Below are positions 41,129 to 54,776 of a stretch of 64,000 nucleotides of DNA, piece after piece. Position numbers and translations under genes: made by a program. The stretch spans positions 10,555 through 74,554 of the forward strand of contig CAZXUR010000002.1 in assembly GCA_964644245.1 (NCBI GenBank). Direction: 5' to 3'. Below the pieces are notes generated by a model, which was not told the DNA's origin, did no database searches, and was given only the letters and a program-made list of their open reading frames with translations. Position 1 is the stretch's first letter, and every line of letters begins with the position of its first letter. This DNA is from an uncultured archaeon. GTDB taxonomy: Archaea > Aenigmatarchaeota > Aenigmatarchaeia > CAZXUR01.

Positions 41129-41677
41129 TCAAAGTTTAAAAACCTTTCTTACTAAATCCCTTACTGCCCTGTCCGCTTCCTTCTTTGTCATCTCTGTGGT
41201 GTCGATGGCGTAGTCTGCCGAATTGATGAGAGACTTAACCCCAAAACCAATCTCTCTCTTGTCTCTTTCTTCCAGGTCCTTCATCTTGCTGGGGTCGTCA
41301 GACCTTTTCCTCTTATGGAGCCTGCGGAACCTTTCTTTTTTGGAGCAGCGGATGGCAATTACCACGGTCTTAAAGTGTTTGTTGAGCAGTTTCAGCTGTT
41401 TCTTGGACCTCAATCCCTCTATCACAAATAGTTTCTTCTTGGTCTTCACATCCTTCTTCAACTCTGATATGAGCCATGAAACGTGGTCGTCGTGGAAGAA
41501 TCTGGAAACCTTTGCCATGTTCTCTTTTGTGGGCTCCAGGTCCAGTTCTTCAGTGGTCTCCCTTATTATATCACCGGAAGTATACACTCTCAGTCCCAGT
41601 GACTCGCACGCCTTGGCAGCGGAGGTCTTACCAGAGCCGGGCATACCTACAAACACGATAGCAGTTTTTTTGGTCAT
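41129..41677 (-). CDS. P-loop nucleotide kinase-like protein (dephospho-CoA-kinase/UPF0200-like)
   Basis: Walker A VFVGMPGSGKTSAAK. 182 aa. Confidence 0.55.
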   Translation of the reverse strand: MTKKTAIVFVGMPGSGKTSAAKACESLGLRVYTSGDIIRETTEELDLEPTKENMAKVSRFFHDDHVSWLISELKKDVKTKKKLFVIEGLRSKKQLKLLNKHFKTVVIAIRCSKKERFRRLHKRKRSDDPSKMKDLEERDKREIGFGVKSLINSADYAIDTTEMTKKEADRAVRDLVRKVFKL

Positions 41678-42729
41678 GCTTTCACCATCATAGTGTTAAC
41701 CGAGGAGGAAGGTTTGTACACGAAACTCCTTCCCTCTTTTTCTCTCTTCACCAAACCTTCGCTCATCAACCTTTTCAAAAGGTTATTCACGGAGCGTGTA
41801 GCGTGCCCTTTAGACTTGTAACCATGGTCCATTGTTTCTGCTATTTTTGCAGCAGATCCGCTGCCCATGTTTATCAAAGCTTCCAGCACTTCTTTTTGTT
41901 TTGATGGCAGTTCTTCAATCGCTTCCATGGACAATCTGTCCTTCTTCTTGGGTTTTCTTTTTTCTACCTGGAGATTAGTCAACTCTAACGTCTCTTTTTC
42001 GATGGCATTGTTAATTACCTGGTCACATGCCTTCAATATTTCCCTGGGAAATCCACCGGTCTTCATGTAGATATCTTCTATGATTTCAGGTGTGAAGGGC
42101 TCCATACCTTCACCGCCCACATTTCCTATCCTTCTTTTTATCAACTGCTCCGTTTCATCATGCGTTAGTGTGGTTAATTCAATTTTGGTGGTGATTCTTT
42201 TGTAAAATGTCTGGAGTTTGTCTTTGAGAATATCCTCAAAAATGGGCAGACCCGCAAGGACCAAACTCATGTTGTCTATATGGTCATTCAAAACCCTCAG
42301 CCATTCCAGGACTTCTATGGGTGCCTCGTGTGCTTCGTCTACCAGAAGGACGAATTGTCTGTCAGGCATTCTGATAGAGACATATTCAGAGAGATTGTAG
42401 AGATTGGGCTCCCTTCTGAGTATCCTGTCCCATATAGAGGGAGAAAATTCGTCAGAAGTGAAAATGGTGATCAAATCAGCAGGGTTTTTGGGGGGTTTAC
42501 TCAGGTATTTAACATGACAGTTCTGTAGTTGCTTGCTAAGCCATTTGAGGAGGGTGGTCTTTCCCGCTCCAGTGGGCCCTGTAACCAGTGCTACCTTGTG
42601 GAGTTCCTGGAGGTGGTTTTGTATTTTGTCCACTTGTTCTTTATAACCGACAAAAAGAGAGGGTGATATGGTGAGTGTGAACGGGTTGGTGTTCCATCCC
42701 ACTTCCTGGAACCACTCTTTAGTAGCCAT
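41674..42729 (-). CDS. AAA+ ATPase with a C-terminal winged-helix domain (Orc1/Cdc6-, ATPase_2- or ExeA-like)
   Basis: NPFTL...FVGYKEQVDKIQNHL lead-in. Walker A LVTGPTGAGKTTLL. Walker B LLVDEAH. A Lys-rich linker, then the wHTH EVLEALINMGSGSAAKIAETM...LLKRLMSEGLVKRE. Its 5' end faces the box array. Confidence 0.6.
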   Translation of the reverse strand: MATKEWFQEVGWNTNPFTLTISPSLFVGYKEQVDKIQNHLQELHKVALVTGPTGAGKTTLLKWLSKQLQNCHVKYLSKPPKNPADLITIFTSDEFSPSIWDRILRREPNLYNLSEYVSIRMPDRQFVLLVDEAHEAPIEVLEWLRVLNDHIDNMSLVLAGLPIFEDILKDKLQTFYKRITTKIELTTLTHDETEQLIKRRIGNVGGEGMEPFTPEIIEDIYMKTGGFPREILKACDQVINNAIEKETLELTNLQVEKRKPKKKDRLSMEAIEELPSKQKEVLEALINMGSGSAAKIAETMDHGYKSKGHATRSVNNLLKRLMSEGLVKREKEGRSFVYKPSSSVNTMMVKA

Positions 42730-42750
42730 AAATCATCATATTCTATATTG

Positions 42751-43256
42751 GTCCGGATGTTTAAATAGTTTCACGTCCGGATGTGAAGTTCACATAGTAA
42801 ATGTGAAAGTAATGTGAAGTTCACGTGAAAGTAAATCCTCAAATGTCTCAAAAAACCGGGTTTGAGGGGTGTTTTGAAAAAGGCGTGAAGTTCACGTGAA
42901 GGTAATGTGAAGTTCACATAGTAAATGTGAAAGTAATGTGAAGTTCACATTCAGATGTGAAGTTCACGTGAACAAATGTGAAAGTAATGTGAAGTTCACG
43001 TGAAACTCGGAAATGCCTTAAAAGGGGGTTAAATTGAGTATTTGGACGTATATGACGATTTTAAGGGGGCACGAACTTCACACAGAAAAATGAACTTCAC
43101 GTGAAGGTAATGTGAAGTTCACATTCAGATGTGAAGTTCACGTGAACAAATGTGAACTTCACGTGAAGTTCACACGAAAAATGTGAAGTTCACGTGAAGT
43201 TCAGTTATGGGCCATTTGAGGGCCTCTGAGGGGGTGCTAGAAAAAATGAACTTCAC
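42751..43256. repeat. Array of GTGAA-N-TTCAC 11-mers (13 full copies, 3 degenerate copies, 9 half-sites)
   Basis: Full copies start at 42783, 42814, 42885, 42907, 42938, 42957, 42989, 43112, 43131, 43152, 43163, 43183 and 43194. Larger duplicated modules: 42781-42824 = 42905-42948 and 42933-42982 = 43107-43156. No ORF is present. Confidence 0.9.
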
Positions 43257-43257
43257 A

Positions 43258-43569
43258 TTACGATAATTTCATGATTTTCATGATTTCTATTAGTTTTTTG
43301 ATGGTTATTCCCTTCTCCAAGTTCTTTACCACCAAAGGCTTCAACTTTATCAATCTCACACCAAAGTAGCGCCCGTCCTCCATGTATCCCACGTTATCCA
43401 CGGCTGAGCTCAATACCTTGTCTATATAGTAAGAAACGGTGGAAACCGGTAGTTTTGCCTCTCTGGCCAGTCTTCTGAGCCACAAACCATCCGGATATTC
43501 GTACAATACGCGTATGATCTTGCTCGCCTTCCGTATATCAGGGCCTTTGGGCCTGCCAACCTTTGCCAT
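43258..43569 (-). CDS. Small winged-helix DNA-binding protein
   Basis: VLYEYPDGLWLRRLAREAKLPVSTVSYYIDKV, a paralogue of 61088-61372. I prefer the ATG at 43569. Its stop lies 2 nt from the last box of the array. Confidence 0.55.
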   Translation of the reverse strand: MAKVGRPKGPDIRKASKIIRVLYEYPDGLWLRRLAREAKLPVSTVSYYIDKVLSSAVDNVGYMEDGRYFGVRLIKLKPLVVKNLEKGITIKKLIEIMKIMKLS

Positions 43570-43575
43570 TATCAC

Positions 43576-43919
43576 TCACAGTTAGTTTTTTGAACACTGT
43601 TCAATATATATTTTTCTATACTCTAAACGTCCCTTTTCACGGTGTAACTAACATCATTTCAATCTTTTGAAGGTCCAAAAATGCTTAAATTTTCCTTTAT
43701 TTTTATATAAACAGTTAAATCCACGTATAAGTAGTTTAAATTTGATATAAATATAGATATAGTCACAAAAATGTTATTTATAACTCTTTTAACTTATTTA
43801 TGTCTTTTTTAGAACTTTAAATTCTTTTAGAAGTGTTTTTAGTGTTTTAGGTTGAAAAAATGGAAAAAAGTAAAACTCTCAAAAAACAATCTTTTTATTT
43901 TTAAAAGATATATATAACT
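43576..43919. other. 344-bp strongly AT-rich ORF-free spacer (divergent promoter region / candidate unwinding element)
   Basis: Runs such as TTTTATATAAAC, AAATTTGATATAAATATAGATATAG and TTTTTATTTTTAAAAGATATATATAAC. No ORF of 60 aa or more. Confidence 0.5.
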
Positions 43920-44453
43920 ATGCGATGTTTTCTCGCTGTGGACGTGCCCGAAGAACTCAGGAAGAAGTTCATGGACGTACAAAGAACTTTTTCCGGGGTG
44001 TGCAGGGCAAAATTTGTTGAGCCTGAGAACCTTCATATAACACTGAAATTCTTCGGAGACGTGGATGAGGACAAAGTAAAGGAGATAATCGAAGAAATAG
44101 CCAAATTCAACGACGAAACCCCGGTAAAAGTGCGTTTTACGCGTATAGGTGGGTTCCCAAGCAACACCTATGTGAAAGTTTTGTGGATAGGGGTTGCCGG
44201 TTTGGAAGAATTGCAGGAAAAGCTGTCAAAAGCCGCAGAAAGCCTTGGTTTCCCCACTAAAAGGAAGGAAAAGCCCCATTTGACCATAGGCAGGGTAAAG
44301 TCAGTTTCCTCTAAAAAAGACTTCTTGGAGAAGATGGACCAAAAAGGCCCTTTTGGTGAGATGACTGTAAAAAATATTAAACTTAAGAAAAGTGACCTCA
44401 CAAAACAAGGTCCTGTTTACGAGGATTTAAAAGTATTTGAACTGGGTGGTTGA
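43920..44453 (+). CDS. RNA 2',3'-cyclic phosphodiesterase (LigT/ThpR, 2H family)
   Basis: Two H-x-T/S motifs: HITLKFFG and HLTIGRV. 177 aa. Confidence 0.85.
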   Translation: MRCFLAVDVPEELRKKFMDVQRTFSGVCRAKFVEPENLHITLKFFGDVDEDKVKEIIEEIAKFNDETPVKVRFTRIGGFPSNTYVKVLWIGVAGLEELQEKLSKAAESLGFPTKRKEKPHLTIGRVKSVSSKKDFLEKMDQKGPFGEMTVKNIKLKKSDLTKQGPVYEDLKVFELGG

Positions 44454-46882: not shown

Positions 46883-47593
46883 ATGGACGAATTCAAACTA
46901 GCCAAAGAAGGACTAGCAAAGAGGATGGCAGGAGAGATATCTCTATCTGAAAAACCAGGGAAAGTTATAAGGAAATGGAGAAACATCCTGAAAATTCCCC
47001 AGAGAAAAGTGGCTGAGAGTATGGACGTGATGCCTTCAGTCATAAGCGACTATGAGTCTGGGAGAAGGAAGTCGCCAGGGATTAAAATAATCAAAAGGAT
47101 GGTGGAAGGGATGCTCTCTGTAGACCAGAAGAGGGGTGGTGAGGTGATAAAGGAGTTCAGCAACTTTCCCCAGTCAGCTTCCATAACATCCGCAGTACTG
47201 GACATTAAAGAATTCGTAGAGCCGGTCAAGGTCAGTAAGTTCGTAAAATCCGTCAAGGGAAGAAAAGCCTACAACTTTCCTGATAAAGAGATATATGGGT
47301 ATACAGTCATAGACTCAGTGAAAGCGATTGTAGAATTCTCACCCATGGACCTGGTCAAACTATACGGACTTACCACTGAAAGAGCCCTGGTATTCACCAA
47401 CCTCACCAGAGGCCGCTCACCATTGATAGCGATTAAGGTGAGTAATTTGAAGCCTGGTCTGGTGATACTCCAGGGAATAAATAAAGTGGATGATATTGCA
47501 TTGAGAATCGCCCAGGTGGAAAAAATACCGTTGGTCCATTCATCCATTGGTTCTGAAGAACTATTGAAAAATCTAAAAGATTCATTCTCATAG
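46883..47593 (+). CDS. XRE-type HTH transcriptional regulator with a C-terminal domain
   Basis: IRKWRNILKIPQRKVAESMDVMPSVISDYESGRRKSPG (HTH_3-like). 236 aa. Confidence 0.65.
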   Translation: MDEFKLAKEGLAKRMAGEISLSEKPGKVIRKWRNILKIPQRKVAESMDVMPSVISDYESGRRKSPGIKIIKRMVEGMLSVDQKRGGEVIKEFSNFPQSASITSAVLDIKEFVEPVKVSKFVKSVKGRKAYNFPDKEIYGYTVIDSVKAIVEFSPMDLVKLYGLTTERALVFTNLTRGRSPLIAIKVSNLKPGLVILQGINKVDDIALRIAQVEKIPLVHSSIGSEELLKNLKDSFS

Positions 47594-47690
47594 ACCCGGT
47601 TATTTCTTATGGAAAGGTTTTTCATTCGGATGAAAAAGAATGACTTAACACTATAACACTGTTATGTAAATATTTTATTATTATTATACC

Positions 47691-47768
47691 TTTCCACCTG
47701 AAATCATGGGGTGGTGGGTATGTTTCTTCTGGAATATATATTCAAAAGAATAATTTCCAGTAGAAGAA
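47691..47768. promoter_or_regulatory. ORB-like boxes upstream of orc1/cdc6
   Basis: TTTCCACCTGAAATCATGGGGTGGTGGG (47691-47718) is a dyad-like core plus a G-string. An inverted pair TTTCTTCTGGAA (47723-47734) / TTCCAGTAGAAGAA (47755-47768) flanks an AT stretch. Confidence 0.45.
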
Positions 47769-47810: not shown

Positions 47811-49007
47811 ATGCAGGAATCACTGGACCAAATGTTCGACTCTTATATTAATCAGGAGTCGTTGTTCAAGAACAAGGTGGTGTTTGCCAATTATTATAAA
47901 CCGGATGACATCATGCACCGGGGTGAAGAGATAAACCAGTTGGGTTCCATACTGGCTCCTAGCCTCAAGGGGAATATTCCCAGCAACATACTTATATTCG
48001 GGACCGTGGGAACCGGTAAGACGTTGGTGGTGAGGCACGTGCTCGACAAGCTCTCCAAAGCTGCTGCCAAGGCCAAGAGTCCTATAAACATGATTTACAT
48101 CAACTGTAAGATGAAGAAGGTATCTGACACAGAGTACAGGCTGGTTTCACAAATACTGAGAAAGATGGGACTCGACGTCCCTGACACCGGACTTCCAACC
48201 AACGTTCTCTACCAAAGACTGTTCGAGAAACTGGAAGAAACCAAAGTTACCCTGCTCATACTTGACGAAATAGATGCGTTGGTGGAAAAGGTGGGTGATG
48301 GTATATTGTACAACCTGACTAGAATAAACAGTGACCTGAAAAAAGGGAAGGTGGGAATGATAGGGATAACCAACGACCTGTCTTTCACTGACCTGCTCGA
48401 CCCTCGTGTGAAGTCCTCACTCTCAGAGGAAGAACTGATATTTTCTCCATACAATGCTTTGCACCTGAAGAACATACTCAAGGAAAGGGTCAAGGAAGGC
48501 ATGGAAAAAGGAGCTTTGAGTGATGCGGTGATAACCAAGTGTGCGGCCTTGGCTGCGCAGGAGCACGGTGATGCGCGCAGAGCCCTGGACCTCCTCAGGG
48601 TTGCGGGTGAAATAGCTGAGAGGAAGAATGAGAAGAAAATACTGGAGAGGCATGTCGACATGGCAGAGACCAAACTGGATTTGGACAGGGTCACGGAAAC
48701 GGTCAAGACCCAGCCCAAACAATCTCAGGCAGTCCTCCTCTCCATAATAGAGATTTCCAAGAAAGACAAGGAAATCACCACAGGCGACATATTTGAGGTT
48801 TATAAAAACACTTGTGAAAAGAATGGTCTCAAGGTTTTGACTCAGAGAAGGGTGTCGGACCTCATCTCAGAGTTGGATATGTTGGGAATCATAACCACCA
48901 CCGTAGTCTCCAGGGGGAGGTACGGAAGGTCCAGAGAGATAAAACTGGCAATCGGAGAGACAGCACTCAACAAGTTGAAGGATATATTATACAAGAATTT
49001 TGAGTAG
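47811..49007 (+). CDS. cdc6: Orc1/Cdc6 replication initiator
   Basis: 398 aa. Walker A FGTVGTGKT, Walker B LILDEIDAL, sensor region GDARRALDLLR, and a C-terminal winged helix. Confidence 0.9.
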   Translation: MQESLDQMFDSYINQESLFKNKVVFANYYKPDDIMHRGEEINQLGSILAPSLKGNIPSNILIFGTVGTGKTLVVRHVLDKLSKAAAKAKSPINMIYINCKMKKVSDTEYRLVSQILRKMGLDVPDTGLPTNVLYQRLFEKLEETKVTLLILDEIDALVEKVGDGILYNLTRINSDLKKGKVGMIGITNDLSFTDLLDPRVKSSLSEEELIFSPYNALHLKNILKERVKEGMEKGALSDAVITKCAALAAQEHGDARRALDLLRVAGEIAERKNEKKILERHVDMAETKLDLDRVTETVKTQPKQSQAVLLSIIEISKKDKEITTGDIFEVYKNTCEKNGLKVLTQRRVSDLISELDMLGIITTTVVSRGRYGRSREIKLAIGETALNKLKDILYKNFE

Positions 49008-49012
49008 ATAAG

Positions 49013-50029
49013 ATGAATAAGAAAAAAATGGTAGGGAAATTCTTGAGCAGGGGAAAATTGGTAACCCCCCATGCTTTGGAAAGCCTTATGACTGAAAAAA
49101 ACACCAGTTTATACCTGGAAAAGGAAGGCCTGTTCACCACCAGGCATGATTTTGAGAAGTTGGTTATTAAGAAGAACATCACCGAGAGTAAGAAGGAGAT
49201 GACCACACAGGATTTTACATCCTACTACCAATCCAGATACGCTAAAATAAGAGAAATATTGGTAAACGAAAAACCACGTCCCTACGTTTCCATAGACAAG
49301 ATAAACAGAGACTTCAAACAAGGGTTTGTGATAGGCATGGTCAGGTCGGTGGAAGACGGAATGGTCATTGAGGACATGACCGGTGAGTTGAAAATTCAAG
49401 GAAAAGGACCCGAGCCTGATGATGTGGTTGCGGTTGAAGTGGTAAGAGACAAAGGACTCAGGGCCAAGAATATAATCTATCCGGACGTGCCCTTGAGGTC
49501 AGCCACCACCGGGAACGGAAGGGCGGTTTTTGTATCAGACATGCACCTCGACGAGGAGAAACAGGGAAAAAAGTTCCTGGAGTGGTTCAATCGTAAAGGA
49601 GTGAAGAATTTGTTCATCGCAGGGGACATAGGGGATCAGAAGACACTGGAGGACAACGTGAGCGGGAACAAAAGGGTGTTTGTGATACCCGGAGAAGCAG
49701 ACGGAAACGACTATCCCCAATTGCCTTTAAATCTCACCAATGGAATAATATCCCTGAGCAATCCGTCCATGGTCGAACTGAATGGCCTCAAAGTTTTGAT
49801 GGTACACGAGTTTGAGAAAGATATGTTGGTGAAGAGACACATGGGGGAATTCATCTTCCCGGAGGACCAGATGGTGCTTGAAGAAGTACCGGACGTGGTG
49901 CACCACGGACACACTCACCAACAATCCATAGACAATTACAAGTCAATAACCATGATAAACTCCGGCTCACCCAAAACACCAGTGATACTGGACTTCAAAA
50001 CTAGGAAGTACAAGGTGATTGAATTATGA
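49013..50029 (+). CDS. Short DP1-like protein (PolD small subunit / B-subunit family: OB fold plus calcineurin-type phosphoesterase)
   Basis: 338 aa. N-terminal FLSRGKLVTPHALESL. OB-like FVIGMVRSVEDGMVIEDMTGELKIQG. Phosphoesterase motifs FVSDMHLD, AGDIGD and HHGHTH are present. The GNH(D/E) position reads PGEADG. Confidence 0.65.
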   Translation: MNKKKMVGKFLSRGKLVTPHALESLMTEKNTSLYLEKEGLFTTRHDFEKLVIKKNITESKKEMTTQDFTSYYQSRYAKIREILVNEKPRPYVSIDKINRDFKQGFVIGMVRSVEDGMVIEDMTGELKIQGKGPEPDDVVAVEVVRDKGLRAKNIIYPDVPLRSATTGNGRAVFVSDMHLDEEKQGKKFLEWFNRKGVKNLFIAGDIGDQKTLEDNVSGNKRVFVIPGEADGNDYPQLPLNLTNGIISLSNPSMVELNGLKVLMVHEFEKDMLVKRHMGEFIFPEDQMVLEEVPDVVHHGHTHQQSIDNYKSITMINSGSPKTPVILDFKTRKYKVIEL

Positions 50030-52710
50030 AGGTTCAGATTTTAGACGTCGATTATGTCATGACCAACCAAAAACCAGTGGTAAGAATCTTTGGCAGAACC
50101 GACGAGGGCAAGTCTGTCTGCCTGTTTCATGAAGGATTCTATCCTTACTTCTACGTCAAATGTGACCAGAAGAAGTCTGAGTTTGAAAAACTGCTAGAAA
50201 AGTTCAACGGTGAGGTCAGGGAAGTAAAGAAAGTCAATAAAAAAATTCCCCTTGGCTACAAGGAGAAGCCCGACGAACTCTTCAAGGTGGTGAACACCAC
50301 CCCGTCTAAGGTGCCTGAGATCAGGAATTTCCTGTTGGACAAAGGCATGGACGTGTACGAGGCAGACATTTTCTTCAAGTACAGGTTCATGGTGGACCAT
50401 AACATAAAGGGAATGGAATGGGCGGAAGTGAAGACCACCAAGACTTTCACAAAGACCGTGAGCATACCCAGTTACAAAATAAAAAACATAAAGCCCATAG
50501 ACAAAACAGGGAACTCTGAGTTGAGGTATTTATCTTTTGATATAGAGTGTGTTTCAAAAAACCCGGACCGCCTGCCTGACGCCAAGACCGACCCGGTCAT
50601 AATCATATCACTGGCCTTCAACAGAAATTACCATGGAAAGAAAACCATGGTCCTGTCGCTCAAGAATTCAGAGGGGTGCAAAGGGTTCAACGGAGAGGAA
50701 AAGATGTTGAAGGAGTTCCTGGAAATAATAAAGGAGTACGATCCGGACATAATCACCGGTTACAACGTGAATAACTTCGACCTCCCGTACATATTCGAGC
50801 GTCTCAAGAAGTACAACGTACCAGCCACACTGGGCAGGTGTGAAAAGAAACAGGCTTACGCGAAAAAGTTCGGTTATTCAACCACAGTCAACATCCCAGG
50901 AAGGGCGGTCATGGACAGTTACCAGATAATAAAGTCAGACCCCTACATGAAGTTCAAGCGATACACACTGAACAACGTTGCCAAGAACATGCTGGACGAC
51001 GAGAAGAAGGACGTGAAGCCGAAGGAAATGGCCAAACTATGGAATGGCTCCAAGAAGGACGTCAAGAAGTTCATAGACTATGGGAGGAAGGACGCGGTCC
51101 TGGCCCTCAGACTCATAATCGAGAAGAATCTTCTGGACAAGTACTTCGAGCTTTCAAAGGTATCCGGTCTGGTCCTGCAGGACGCAGTGGGCGGTCAGGC
51201 CATAAGGGTGGAAACATGTTTCCTCCATAAATTCAGGGAACGCGGGTATGTAATGCCGGCAAAACCCAATGGGAGTGAGATAAGCAGGAGAAGGAAGGAG
51301 AGGGAAGAAATCGGACTCAAGGGAGGTTTCGTACTTTCACCCGAAAAGGGGCTGCACTCCAAGGGGTGCATATTGGTCCTGGACTTCAAGAGTCTGTACC
51401 CTTCCATCATGATTACTCACAATATATGTCCCAGTGCTTTGCTGAAGGACGGAAAAAAAGAGAAGAAACACAAGGGCTCCAAGTCCCCTTCCGGCTCCAG
51501 GTTCGTAGACACTTCAGTTCACCGCGGACTGCTCCCGGAGGTAGTTAATGAAATACTCGATGCCAGGGCAAAGGCAAAGAAGGAGATGTACGCGGCAAAA
51601 ACAAAGGAAAAGAGAAAATTAATGGACGCAAAACAATACGCGCTTAAGATAATGGCCAATTCGTTTTACGGTTACACCGGATATTTCAGGGCCAGACTTT
51701 ACATGGTCGAGGTCGCGGCAGCAATAACATCCTTCGGGAGGGAACTCATAAAGAAGAGCAAAAAACTCTGTGAGGAGGAGTTTGATGCAAAGGTCATTTA
51801 TGGTGACACGGATTCCATATTCGTCAAAGTCAAGACCAATGACTTGGACAAGGCAGCCAAGCTGGGAGAAGACATCTGTGAAAGGATCAACAAGACCCTT
51901 TCAGGAGTCCTGGAACTGGAGTTCGAGAAGATATACCGTACCTTCCTCATACTCACCAAGAAACGCTACGCAGCCTGGAAGTTTGAAAAACAGAACGGGA
52001 AGTGGGAGAACTCCATAGACATGAAAGGTATAGAAACGGTGAGGAGGGACTGGTGTGATTTGGTCAGCTCAACCATGAAAGATGTTATTTCCATGATACT
52101 CAAGGAAGGGGACGTGAAGAAGGCGATGTCAAAAGTGAAAGACATTGTAGAAAAACTGAAGTCAGGAGAAGTTGAATTGGAAAAACTGGCAATAGTAAAG
52201 GGAATAACTAAGAAGCCTTCGGAGTACGATGGTACACTCCCCCACATAGAACTGGCCAAAAAGATGAGCAGGAGGGATGCCACTACAGCTCCGGTTGCCG
52301 GAGAAAGGATTGCTTTTGTGATAATAAAAGGCAATCAAATGTTGTCCAAGAGAGCTGAGTCTCCCGAATACGTAAAGGAAAACTCTCTGGAAATAGACCC
52401 GGACTACTATATCCATTCCCAACTCCTCCCCCCACTGGAGAGAATATTCTCATCACTGGGAGTTAACAAGACAGAATTACTGGGACTGGGAAGACAGATG
52501 AATTTCTTTGAGGTAGTGAACGGTTCAAAGAGGAAGCTTAACCACAACGTTGCGGTAAAACACAGCCAGACCCTGGAAGGATTTGAGGAATTCACATGCA
52601 AGTCTTGTAAGAAGACGTTGAGGAGGCCTCCACTCACCGGTAAGTGCTCCTGTGGGGGCAACATAGAAATAGTCTTTCAGGGTTCCAGTTCCGACCGCTG
52701 CAAGGTTTAG
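50026..52710 (+). CDS. polB: Family B DNA polymerase with a C-terminal C4 zinc ribbon
   Basis: 894 aa. Exo I FDIEC. Pol motifs SLYPSI and YGDTDS. C-terminal CKSCKKTLRRPPLTGKCSCGG. ATGA overlap with the DP1-like gene. No intein is present. Confidence 0.9.
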   Translation: MKVQILDVDYVMTNQKPVVRIFGRTDEGKSVCLFHEGFYPYFYVKCDQKKSEFEKLLEKFNGEVREVKKVNKKIPLGYKEKPDELFKVVNTTPSKVPEIRNFLLDKGMDVYEADIFFKYRFMVDHNIKGMEWAEVKTTKTFTKTVSIPSYKIKNIKPIDKTGNSELRYLSFDIECVSKNPDRLPDAKTDPVIIISLAFNRNYHGKKTMVLSLKNSEGCKGFNGEEKMLKEFLEIIKEYDPDIITGYNVNNFDLPYIFERLKKYNVPATLGRCEKKQAYAKKFGYSTTVNIPGRAVMDSYQIIKSDPYMKFKRYTLNNVAKNMLDDEKKDVKPKEMAKLWNGSKKDVKKFIDYGRKDAVLALRLIIEKNLLDKYFELSKVSGLVLQDAVGGQAIRVETCFLHKFRERGYVMPAKPNGSEISRRRKEREEIGLKGGFVLSPEKGLHSKGCILVLDFKSLYPSIMITHNICPSALLKDGKKEKKHKGSKSPSGSRFVDTSVHRGLLPEVVNEILDARAKAKKEMYAAKTKEKRKLMDAKQYALKIMANSFYGYTGYFRARLYMVEVAAAITSFGRELIKKSKKLCEEEFDAKVIYGDTDSIFVKVKTNDLDKAAKLGEDICERINKTLSGVLELEFEKIYRTFLILTKKRYAAWKFEKQNGKWENSIDMKGIETVRRDWCDLVSSTMKDVISMILKEGDVKKAMSKVKDIVEKLKSGEVELEKLAIVKGITKKPSEYDGTLPHIELAKKMSRRDATTAPVAGERIAFVIIKGNQMLSKRAESPEYVKENSLEIDPDYYIHSQLLPPLERIFSSLGVNKTELLGLGRQMNFFEVVNGSKRKLNHNVAVKHSQTLEGFEEFTCKSCKKTLRRPPLTGKCSCGGNIEIVFQGSSSDRCKV

Positions 52711-53324
52711 TTCCGCACCGCCTTTATCACCATGTCCCTCTTGTCCTTTGTTGCGAAACCAACTCGGTTGTGAAACTTGGAGACCCTTCTCTTACCTTCT
52801 ATATCCAAACACCAACACTTTCCTGACTTGTATATGTTGCAGTCTACATCCTCCAAAGACAGCAGCGCTTCCACTTCTTTAAGGCCTTTGTGGTTGACTG
52901 ACTTCACACGTACGTTCCTCACTTTCGTTCGTTTTTTTCCGGAGCCCCGAAACCTTACTCTGATGTATCCCTTGACCTCGAAGAACCCGCTCAGGAAACC
53001 CCGTCTGAATCTCTTTGAATCGTAAGCCATGTCTGGTACAGTCCAGTCCCGTGTGCCAAACCTATTGTTCCATTTTTTCAAGAGGCGTTTGACCGTCTTC
53101 TTCCCGTATAACTGGACTGTATACCTAGTTTTTCCTCCTTTCTTTGCTTCACGCACCTTTGGTTCAGTCTGACTTATGTTGGACAGGGAAAGGAGGAACA
53201 CGTCTGCGAATTGTTTGTCGCTTGTCCTGAGTGTGAAAGAGTAGTTGCCGGTCTTTTTCGAGCAACAGACCGAACCGCCCCCACACAGGGAACCACACAC
53301 AAACCCTTCTTCAAGTACAGACAT
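52707..53324 (-). CDS. Free-standing LAGLIDADG-like (degenerate) protein
   Basis: 205 aa. FLSGFFEVKGYI and GFVCGSLCGGGSV resemble two LAGLIDADG-type helices. An acidic residue is present only in the second (E). The protein is very basic. 4-nt convergent overlap with polB. Confidence 0.4.
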   Translation of the reverse strand: MSVLEEGFVCGSLCGGGSVCCSKKTGNYSFTLRTSDKQFADVFLLSLSNISQTEPKVREAKKGGKTRYTVQLYGKKTVKRLLKKWNNRFGTRDWTVPDMAYDSKRFRRGFLSGFFEVKGYIRVRFRGSGKKRTKVRNVRVKSVNHKGLKEVEALLSLEDVDCNIYKSGKCWCLDIEGKRRVSKFHNRVGFATKDKRDMVIKAVRN

Positions 53325-53366
53325 GGTTAATGTTTGACCCGGAGGTTTAAATCCATTACCTATGAA

Positions 53367-53598
53367 GGGGGGTATAGAAAATGTGAATTACGGATGGAAA
53401 AAAGGTGAAATTCACATCCCTTCAGACCCAATTAAAATGAAACTTTAACCCACTTTCGTGAAGTTCATTTTTGGTAAAAAAAGGAAAAAGTTCCACTGGA
53501 AACGGACGGGTGCGCAAAACCCGTTTTTACGGGTCTTGAGGAAATTCACATTTCCCTTCAGAATTCATAGAAAATATTCCTTTGTGTGTGAATTTCAC
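53367..53598. repeat. Second cluster of GTGAA-N-TTCAC-type boxes
   Basis: GTGAAATTCAC at 53405-53415, GTGAAGTTCAT at 53458-53468, GTGAATTTCAC at 53588-53598. Direct repeat GAAATTCACAT..CCCTTCAGA at 53407-53426 and 53541-53562. G-string at 53367-53372. Confidence 0.7.
53490..53503. promoter_or_regulatory. Mini-ORB-like element GTTCCACTGGAAAC
   Basis: The 14-mer is nearly the reverse complement of the archaeal mini-ORB core as I recall it (GTTCCAGTGGAAAC). It is followed by GGACGGGTG. Confidence 0.5.
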
Positions 53599-54776
53599 AG
53601 TGTGAAGTAAGCGATGGTTGGTAATATCAGGACCCCCATCATGAAGGACTTCCTCACACCGATGTTGATGCAGAAAAGCCCTATAGAAAGCGCAATCAGA
53701 CTCAGGAACACGCCGAACAGACCGTTGAATATGTAGACCAGGACAATGACCAGGAAAAAAACCAGGCTACACAGTAAACGATAGTTTATTCTGGTGATGA
53801 TTTTTAGGGAGACTTTGGACAACCACACGGTTGAAAGGGCGGCCAGACCCACTGACAGCAAGGAAACAGCGAGAAGGAGCAGGAGCTCGGGCATCCCCAC
53901 ATCCATCAATCCACCCACCACTATGGCCGCGCCGCTCCTGGGATTTCCTATCAGGAAAAGTGCTAGAAAGGAGAACACTATGTCAGCGGTGTTCACCCCA
54001 CCTATGGACATCAAGAACTCAGTGGTCTTCTTGCTCTTCCCGATTTCCTTTGCGAATACTGTTGCTTGGGCCGAGCCGATTCCGGGAAGCAGACCTGCTA
54101 TAAGCCCTGCTGCGCCCCCAATCAGAGAAGCCTTTCCGAACGATTTTTTATCCACCTTCAGTACTTCTGTCTTCTGTTCAGGCAATACGTTCCTTTGGGA
54201 GAATGATGTGTAGAGGAGTGGCAGGCCGAATAAACCACTGAGGAGCGGGAACAGGGATTTGGATGATATCTCCAACGCCAAATATCCCAAAGCACCAGAC
54301 AGGAACAGCACCATTCCAGAGCCCCACCTGTTCTTGGAGCGGTAGAGCATATATACCACCACTCCCATCAGTAGCAGGTGAGTGTTGGGCCTCAAAATTT
54401 CGTAGACAGGAGGGACCAAGAACATCACCACGGGCAGTGCAAAAAGACAAAAGAGAAAACTTCCCACACCTCCCATGACTGTCAGGACCACAGCCTGATG
54501 CCCCAGACCTTTCAGTAACATCCTGTGTCCGGGCAGGACGGAAAGCGCAGAGTCGCCCTCCGGTGCACCCAGATAAATGGACGGGATAAAGTTCACGAAA
54601 GAGTTGACCACTGAACAGGAAACTATCAGGGAGACCAACGGGATTGTTGGGAGTCCCAACCCGATGCCCAGACTAGAAACCATGATTGCGATGGTGTTAG
54701 GGTGCAGTCCTGGAATCAAGCCGGCTATTACCCCCAAAAAGAAGCCCAGAAGAATGTAGGAAAGTACTAAAAACAT
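53595..54776 (-). CDS. TctA-family (DUF112) permease-like membrane protein
   Basis: 393 aa and polytopic. Motifs GLIPGLHPNT and GLLPGIGSAQATV. Confidence 0.5.
   Translation of the reverse strand: MFLVLSYILLGFFLGVIAGLIPGLHPNTIAIMVSSLGIGLGLPTIPLVSLIVSCSVVNSFVNFIPSIYLGAPEGDSALSVLPGHRMLLKGLGHQAVVLTVMGGVGSFLFCLFALPVVMFLVPPVYEILRPNTHLLLMGVVVYMLYRSKNRWGSGMVLFLSGALGYLALEISSKSLFPLLSGLFGLPLLYTSFSQRNVLPEQKTEVLKVDKKSFGKASLIGGAAGLIAGLLPGIGSAQATVFAKEIGKSKKTTEFLMSIGGVNTADIVFSFLALFLIGNPRSGAAIVVGGLMDVGMPELLLLLAVSLLSVGLAALSTVWLSKVSLKIITRINYRLLCSLVFFLVIVLVYIFNGLFGVFLSLIALSIGLFCINIGVRKSFMMGVLILPTIAYFTL

Follow-up and report, generated by a model that had tools for sequence, protein, structure and literature searches.

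What does a box-rich spacer downstream of polB do in an archaeon whose origin of replication appears to lie several kilobases away, upstream of the initiator gene orc1? The spacer (53325–53594) is part of a 64,000-nucleotide stretch of DNA, here called the window, which corresponds to C2:10555–74554 in the genome of a DPANN archaeon (754 kb, 14 contigs, 86% complete). A first-pass annotation, made from the letters of the window and a list of its open reading frames (ORFs), had pointed out palindromic boxes, a direct repeat, a run of six G, a hairpin-forming triplet and a near-canonical mini origin recognition box (mini-ORB) in this spacer, and had taken the spacer and a box array at 42.8 kb for paired boundary or origin elements of one replication island. 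We found every one of these motifs in place, and the mini-ORB proved to be part of a full ORB that recurs at the corresponding position in related genomes. Tentatively, we read the spacer as a conserved accessory docking site for Orc1/Cdc6, separate from the real origin at 47.6–47.7 kb.

Archaeal initiation control is known from very few model species, and we know of nothing on it in DPANN archaea, which are not growable alone; a full-text literature search returned no description of ORBs in DPANN or Aenigmatarchaeota. The spacer represents a short, conserved, predicted initiator site that is probably not an origin, and it ties such a site to a second DNA-binding system, a word array beside the gene of an AAA+/winged-helix ATPase. 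This raises the questions of whether off-origin ORBs are used for Orc1 control outside the haloarchaea, and of which protein binds the GTGAA array.

A full ORB in the spacer downstream of polB

The ORB of the spacer, and the words belonging to it or resembling it, are the following.

53490–53512, plus strand: full ORB, GTTCCA-CTG-GAAAC-GGA-CGGGTG, 23 nt, from a matrix scan and alignment with the relatives L037 and L038
53490–53503: mini-ORB part of this ORB, GTTCCACTGGAAAC, read from the sequence
Inside 53440–53560: TTCCACTGGAAAC, a word of the ORB core
53367–53372, plus strand: run of six G (G6), below 3 bits in the matrix and part of no scorable ORB

The core of the ORB, TTCCA-CTG-GAAAC at 53491–53503, has the dyad-like form TCCA-N3-GAAA by which a mini-ORB is recognised, and it reads on into a G-string, GGA-CGGGTG, which carries one mismatch at its first G and points toward the 3' end of the neighbouring TctA-family gene. 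The layout is that of the ORB upstream of orc1, TTCCA-CCT-GAAAT-CAT-GGGGTG. We scanned the genome with a position matrix trained solely on the orc1-upstream ORBs of ten class-level relatives, a limited training set that divergent ORBs may escape. The top match in the 754-kb genome is 53490(+) with 24.9 bits, followed by the orc1-upstream ORB at 47691 with 22.6 bits, and the next, unrelated match reaches 15.2 bits. Additionally, the spacer ORB aligns with ORBs in the homologous spacer of L037 and L038. Judged by its sequence, the ORB at 53490 is genuine; for origin-prediction pipelines it carries the caution that the best ORB of a genome need not mark its origin.

Besides this ORB, nothing in 53300–53640 reaches 3 bits in the matrix scan. 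The G6 run stands at an ORB-like spacing (15 nt) from a TCCA at 53352, with the GAAA half absent, and two other loci, L027 and L029, have G-runs that are comparably placed upstream of their LAGLIDADG-like gene. A degenerate inverted ORB at this position, formed by TTCCATCCGTAAT on the minus strand or by the TCCA at 53352 together with G6, appears plausible by eye when compared with L027, and was rejected at its score of less than 3 bits. A TTCCASTGGAA word at C3:32596, which lies in coding-looking sequence and has no G-string, was set aside as a chance occurrence.

The ORB recurs at the same position in relatives

Scanning GTDB genomes with Orc1, we obtained 80 loci and analysed 66 of them (Aenigmatarchaeota and Nanohaloarchaea); these loci are not independent, and all counts across relatives are to be read with this in mind. 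With a strong ORB defined as a match of at least 18 bits, the densities per kb in three zones were as follows.

700 bp upstream of orc1: 2.06 strong ORBs per kb
Within 450 bp of a TctA or PolB 3' end: 1.21 strong ORBs per kb
Everywhere else (0.95 Mb): 0.016 strong ORBs per kb

A secondary cluster of one to three ORBs is present in 25 of 48 informative loci, distributed over at least eight well-supported clades of the Orc1 tree; the region is conserved among relatives. The closest of these, L037 and L038, have Orc1 proteins 61–62% identical to that of the window and no LAGLIDADG-like gene in the spacer, which there extends for 240–280 bp between the convergent 3' ends of PolB and TctA and contains no shared ORF. 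The window is collinear with both loci over the GTGAA words, the ORB, a TTTTTA word and a palindromic GTGAA-N-TTCA(C/T) box at the TctA stop. At about 12 further loci the cluster likewise sits between convergent 3' ends, with neither a LAGLIDADG gene nor a shared small ORF. Because it is present in convergent spacers devoid of the LAGLIDADG gene, the cluster is independent of a promoter, and an operator of the LAGLIDADG promoter was ruled out as its main function on the same grounds.

Among the strong ORBs within 500 bp of TctA 3' ends (15 loci), 23 of 27 aim their G-string toward TctA. Many genomes have the entire PolB-ORB-TctA block in inverted orientation, and the polarity of the ORB stays tied to TctA. 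Between the DP1-like and NAC-domain genes the block is seen in two orientations, Orc1+ DP1+ PolB+ .. TctA- and Orc1+ DP1+ TctA+ .. PolB- (L037–L102), and the inversion is centred on the ORB spacer. TctA stands directly upstream of orc1 in the nanohaloarchaeal loci L044, L046 and L068.

Two other families of the class keep the gene order ATPase-LigT-DnaG-HTH-Orc1-DP1-like-PolB-LAGLIDADG-(TctA)-NAC, and all of their members possess an ORB-like core, TTTCACGTGGAG, upstream of the LAGLIDADG-like gene; in G016, the same spacer also contains a full ORB of 28 bits. Tandem ORBs in the same direction, 101–103 bp apart, are found in the TctA-PolB spacer of L085, L088, L090 and L094.

Palindromic boxes link the spacer to a repeat array

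The boxes and repeats flanking the ORB, and the array with which they share a word, are the following.

53405–53415, no strand: palindromic box GTGAAATTCAC, the array word with A at its centre, a perfect GTGAANTTCAC copy
53458–53468, no strand: imperfect box GTGAAGTTCAT, one mismatch, aligning with the GTGAA words upstream of the ORB in L037 and L038
53588–53598, no strand: palindromic box GTGAATTTCAC, overlapping the TctA stop codon (53595–53597)
53383–53387, plus strand: single GTGAA word AATGTGAATT, inverted partner of AATTCACAT at 53409
53407–53426, plus strand: direct repeat copy 1, GAAATTCACAT-CCCTTCAGA
53541–53562, plus strand: direct repeat copy 2, GAAATTCACATTTCCCTTCAGA, including a half box
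42751–43256, no strand: array of GTGAAGTTCAC words upstream of the gene of a 351-amino-acid AAA+/winged helix-turn-helix (wHTH) ATPase, sharing its word with the spacer

That the box word links the spacer to the array, as had been proposed, is borne out by its distribution. GTGAANTTCAC has 14 copies in the 754-kb genome, 12 of them in the array at 42.78–43.19 kb and two in the spacer, and is thus exclusive to these two places rather than equally dense elsewhere. With up to one mismatch allowed, 21 matches are found in the window, against 2.9 expected from shuffles. When array 6-mers are counted per 274 bp, the spacer ranks first genome-wide outside the array, with 24 against 16–17 for the next. 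Other stretches dense in array words (at 38.2 kb of the window and at C2:129.9 kb, C3:81.3 kb and C5:25.1 kb) consist of scattered words in coding sequence and were discarded as chance.

The first-pass annotation had stated that the two places have the same architecture, which they do not. The array is made of 12 perfect boxes in helical phase, whereas the spacer has two perfect boxes and an imperfect one, dispersed and unphased; box centres are G/C in the array and A/T in the spacer. An ORB is present only in the spacer, no match of at least 5 bits being found in 42700–43950.

In L037 and L038, too, the ATPase orthologue has a large phased TTCAC/GTGAA array on its upstream side. Phased GTGAA triplets, none of which is found in the window's spacer, do occur in the homologous spacers of these two relatives, and a search of both genomes located them solely in the ATPase-upstream arrays and the PolB-TctA spacer, with 0 matches for a reversed control pattern; the exclusivity of the word in the window is therefore reproduced in two further genomes. 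The box at or next to the TctA stop is kept in place in L037 (GTGAAATTCAC) and in L038 (GTGAACTTCAT). GTGAA/TTCAC pentamers amount to 10.4 per kb in secondary clusters (4.4-fold), compared with 2.35 in the background and 2.97 in primary origins. Hence the ORB cluster co-occurs with the array word, exclusively genome-wide, in three genomes.

The two copies of the direct repeat share two exact blocks, of 11 and 10 nt. L037 holds just one such unit (GAAATTCACATATCAGAAC), which points to a lineage-specific duplication of a box-containing unit in the window. In three loci of family f4 (L030:481–640, L032:3181–3340 and L033:2011–2170), the second-best stretch for array words falls within the coding sequence of the ATPase orthologue, ~700 bp away from the array.

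The spacer lacks the hallmarks of an origin

The window has an obvious standard against which the spacer can be measured, since its primary origin lies upstream of orc1.

47593–47713, no strand: primary origin, with ORB(-) at 47593–47615, an AT-rich stretch with ATAACACTGTTAT (47653–47665) and ORB(+) at 47691–47713

The two places compare as follows, in the window and in relatives.

ORBs in the window: primary origin, facing pair 47593(-) and 47691(+); spacer, one ORB
Lowest GC in 40 bp, window: primary origin, 15%; spacer, 27.5%
ATAAC-N3-GTTAT palindrome: primary origin, at 47653; 53.3–53.6 kb spacer, none
Facing ORB pairs in relatives: primary, 28 of 50 clusters; secondary, 3 of 24
Mean lowest GC in 40 bp, relatives: primary, 0.13; secondary, 0.24

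Against this background the idea of a second origin, raised in the first-pass annotation, finds little footing: the spacer has no inverted ORB pair, no strongly AT-rich unwinding element and no copy of the lineage's palindrome. The lowest GC in 40 bp of the spacer at 43.6 kb is 12.5%. With canonical archaeal origins (Sulfolobus oriC1, Pyrococcus oriC and the window's own orc1-upstream origin) the spacer shares the type of ORB, a TCCA-N3-GAAA core followed by a 3-nt gap and a G-string, and presumably also the same single Orc1. The window's orc1 (47811–49007) is the sole Orc1/Cdc6 gene in the assembly, and its product groups with those of metagenome-assembled genomes of Aenigmatarchaeota. Unlike those origins, the spacer is not adjacent to the orc1 start; and of the two sites in the window, only the spacer has GTGAA words.

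The palindrome itself, a candidate site for a second origin factor, is located in the AT-rich stretch between the inverted primary ORBs. Of 60 loci, 46 have it in the 800 bp upstream of orc1, with 60 matches there compared to 23 in the other ~1 Mb, and L068 has as many as about ten copies.

Genes and transcripts around the spacer

The genes adjoining the spacer, and the signals that may belong to their transcripts, are the following.

52707–53324, minus strand: LAGLIDADG-like gene, 205 amino acids, Pfam LAGLIDADG_3, between polB and the ORB cluster
53595–54776, minus strand: TctA-family membrane protein gene, Pfam TctA, its 3' end being the conserved neighbour of the ORB cluster
53346–53351, minus strand: TTTAAA, TATA-box-like, 22–27 bp upstream of the LAGLIDADG-like ATG (53324), read from the sequence
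53506–53511, 53519–53524 and 53529–53534: hairpin arms ACGGGT, ACCCGT and ACGGGT
53515–53538, minus strand: hairpin on the TctA sense strand, CAAGACCCGU-AAAA-ACGGGUUUUG, a probable TctA terminator with T5 and T7 runs at 53489–53476 (minus strand)

The local gene order begins with the 351-amino-acid ATPase (41674–42729, minus strand), the word array at 42.75–43.26 kb, a 105-amino-acid wHTH gene (43258–43575, minus strand), LigT, DnaG and a 236-amino-acid helix-turn-helix (HTH) protein (46883–47593); it continues with the primary origin, orc1, a DP1-like metallophosphatase and PolB (50026–52710, plus strand), and ends with the LAGLIDADG-like gene, the 270-bp spacer, the TctA-family gene and a NAC-domain gene. 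The spacer ORB is thus 4.5 kb downstream of the orc1 stop, with the DP1-like gene, polB and the LAGLIDADG-like gene in between. Array and spacer had been thought to bracket the replication genes as boundary elements. This arrangement does not extend to relatives, in which 20 kb separate the array from the cluster or the two are found on different contigs, and in the many genomes with the inverted block polB falls outside the bracket.

The spacer had been described as 270 bp without an ORF, which is correct for ORFs of at least 60 amino acids (none within 53325–53594); short ORFs of 20–50 amino acids are present. None of these is common to L037 or L038, and a small protein encoded in the spacer was ruled out on this basis.

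Of the three-part alternative hairpin that had been suggested, one fold withstands scrutiny. The minus-strand hairpin has a predicted energy of -13.9 kcal/mol (z -3.1, equalled by 1 of 200 shuffles); the plus-strand hairpins are no better than shuffles (z -0.6 and -1.3). The first ACGGGT of the triplet is the G-string of the ORB, because the mini-ORB reads on into the full ORB, and neither hairpin nor triplet is conserved in L037 or L038. A scan for bacterial-type terminators found none, and an Rfam search at E ≤1 over 40–58 kb gave no match in the spacer; a structured non-coding RNA or riboswitch-like hairpin was rejected on account of this result, the insignificant plus-strand folds and the unconserved triplet. 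The minus-strand hairpin and its T-runs probably, and most simply, serve to end the TctA transcript. From archaeal promoter geometry, the TTTAAA at 53346 is probably a promoter element of the LAGLIDADG-like gene.

A possible accessory docking site and its alternatives

If the spacer is an accessory docking site, Orc1 would bind its ORB with the winged helix on the TCCA-N3-GAAA dyad and the AAA+ domain on the G-string, the contacts known from solved Orc1-ORB complexes. The flanking boxes would be bound by the protein that coats the 42.8-kb array, for which the 351-amino-acid ATPase and the 105-amino-acid wHTH protein are candidates. MCM loading would not be expected at the spacer, because it has no inverted ORB partner and no unwinding stretch. 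Instead, the spacer would hold or modify Orc1 near the origin and could thereby tune initiation, in the manner of oriC2D or datA (see below).

Several observations weigh against this tentative reading. For titration, a single ORB makes a poor sink next to the 11 of oriC2D, and the secondary cluster is not universal, 23 of the 48 informative loci having none at 18 bits or more. Common descent and inversion of the block, rather than function, may explain the fixed polarity toward TctA. Facing ORB pairs, 60–130 bp apart in L027 (G016), L053, L067 and L086, are compatible with origin activity of the spacer in those lineages. Finally, neither Orc1 nor any solved structure shows detectable similarity to the 351-amino-acid ATPase. 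An assignment of this protein as an Orc1 paralogue finds no support (BLASTP E 0.5, no meaningful alignment, no solved relative).

The closest precedent is Haloarcula hispanica oriC2D, an ORB-rich region downstream of cdc6E that lacks autonomously replicating sequence (ARS) activity and exerts negative control on oriC2, the probable means being titration of Cdc6E (PMC3936714). ORBs are found downstream of many haloarchaeal ori-cdc6 pairs (PMC3936714). Like oriC2D, the spacer has initiator boxes that are not part of the origin and stand a few kb away from it, downstream of the initiator gene or operon; in both cases this arrangement recurs in relatives and hallmarks of an origin are missing. It differs in ORB density, oriC2D having 11 ORBs in 722 bp against one in the spacer and one to three in relatives, and in location, oriC2D being directly downstream of its initiator gene and the spacer ORB two to three genes (4.5 kb) away from orc1. 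The spacer ORB further has a fixed polarity toward TctA, and the spacer also has words of a further repeat family, not of the ORB type, whose large array is elsewhere.

The E. coli datA and DARS loci are clusters of DnaA boxes with sites for IHF or Fis that inactivate or reactivate the initiator. Despite belonging to another domain of life and another initiator, they share with the spacer a design in which a few initiator boxes stand beside sites for an accessory protein (predicted in the spacer), near the origin and outside it, and they act on the initiator and not on unwinding, as we propose for the spacer. That accessory sites and an AAA+ ATPase could act together on the nucleotide state of Orc1 is pure speculation by analogy. 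In the bipartite bacterial origins of H. pylori (oriC1-dnaA-oriC2) and B. subtilis (incAB-dnaA-incC), two clusters of initiator boxes also flank the initiator gene or operon. There, however, one half carries the unwinding element and both are needed, whereas the orc1-upstream part is complete by itself here, and relatives whose block is inverted do not keep the flanking layout.

A second working origin, or the distal half of a bipartite origin that loops to the orc1-upstream half as in these two bacteria, is an alternative that we consider unlikely. It would account for a spacer ORB whose consensus is as strong as that of the primary one and for an A-rich 90-bp stretch (31.5% GC) beside it, as well as for the facing pairs mentioned above. 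The TctA-side ORBs of L044, L046 and L068 do belong to the primary origin, with GTGAA words there too in L068, and a split of an ancestral origin by inversion fits the TctA-orc1 adjacency of these three loci. This alternative is at odds with the spacer's single ORB, its lack of a strongly AT-rich stretch and its missing palindrome, with a primary origin that is complete alone, and with the secondary ORBs of relatives, which mostly run in one direction. Moreover, deletion of either inverted ORB in H. hispanica abolishes ARS activity (Wu et al. 2014, PMC3936714). The adjacency in L044, L046 and L068, with its intervening ORBs, would also suit a relic, namely the TctA-side part of an ancestral origin that was severed from orc1 by inversion or gene insertion and is now functionless. 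The occurrence of the PolB-ORB-TctA block in both orientations with ORB polarity tied to TctA, and the fact that about half of the informative loci have no cluster at 18 bits or more, point the same way. Yet the ORB scores as high as the primary one in lineages whose Orc1 is only 50–60% identical, across which a neutral 23-nt site would have decayed; the TctA-stop box and the GTGAA words are also retained in L037 and L038, and L044 and L068, where TctA is next to orc1, still have a separate secondary cluster. We therefore give a relic very little weight.

We lend little credence to a purely local element of transcription, in which Orc1 and the box binder, without any part in replication control, would act as a roadblock or terminator where the TctA and polB/LAGLIDADG transcripts converge, or the boxes would be LAGLIDADG operators. 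Archaeal Orc1 paralogues are known as regulators of transcription, for example Sulfolobus Orc1-2, and the position of the cluster at gene 3' ends, with one box across the TctA stop codon, would suit such a role, as would the significant minus-strand hairpin and T-runs adjoining the ORB and the TATA-like box of the LAGLIDADG-like gene in the same spacer. A composite site of mini-ORB cores and TTCACGTGAA in the ftsZ promoter region (described below) suggests that promoter occupancy is possible. Nevertheless, the cluster is conserved where there is no promoter or LAGLIDADG gene (L037, L038 and loci of the TctA+/PolB- type), the hairpin is not conserved, T-runs alone are required for archaeal termination, and an ORB that works as a terminator is, to our knowledge, without precedent. 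On balance, the accessory docking site remains the reading that we prefer, tentatively, for the spacer downstream of polB.

A third composite site and minor observations

Outside the window, a 250-bp spacer at C1:47757–48008, upstream of ftsZ (C1:48008–49465), is a third composite site. It contains two tandem mini-ORB cores without G-string, ACTCCACTTGAAAC (the third-best ORB match in the genome) and TATTCCACAAGAAAT, and, between GGGGAC repeats, the sole copy of the array word TTCACGTGAA outside the array (nine genome-wide, eight in the array). Of five relatives checked, G016 has three such cores upstream of ftsZ and the other four have none.

One can imagine, as a long shot, that the array, the polB/TctA spacer and the ftsZ-upstream spacer are nodes of one circuit peculiar to these DPANN archaea. 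At composite sites, ORB-bound Orc1 would be met by the array-binding AAA+/winged-helix ATPase and altered in its activity, a datA/DARS-like switch with an ATPase dedicated to it, by which origin firing would be coupled to cell division.

The LAGLIDADG-like gene is a patchy, later insertion into the spacer, since it is absent in L037 and L038 and is found on the other side of the ORB in L071. Its homologues adjoin polB in families f4 and f9; more distant ones (L013–L018) adjoin neither polB nor an ORB. Some families have a version of the gene without stops (L002–L012, L062, L071, L073, L080, L082 and L092). The first LAGLIDADG motif has no acidic residue, and the second retains FD. In L048, L083 and L099, polB matches come in two pieces 1.2–1.4 kb apart, a pattern that suggests an intein or other insertion; the polB of the window is uninterrupted.

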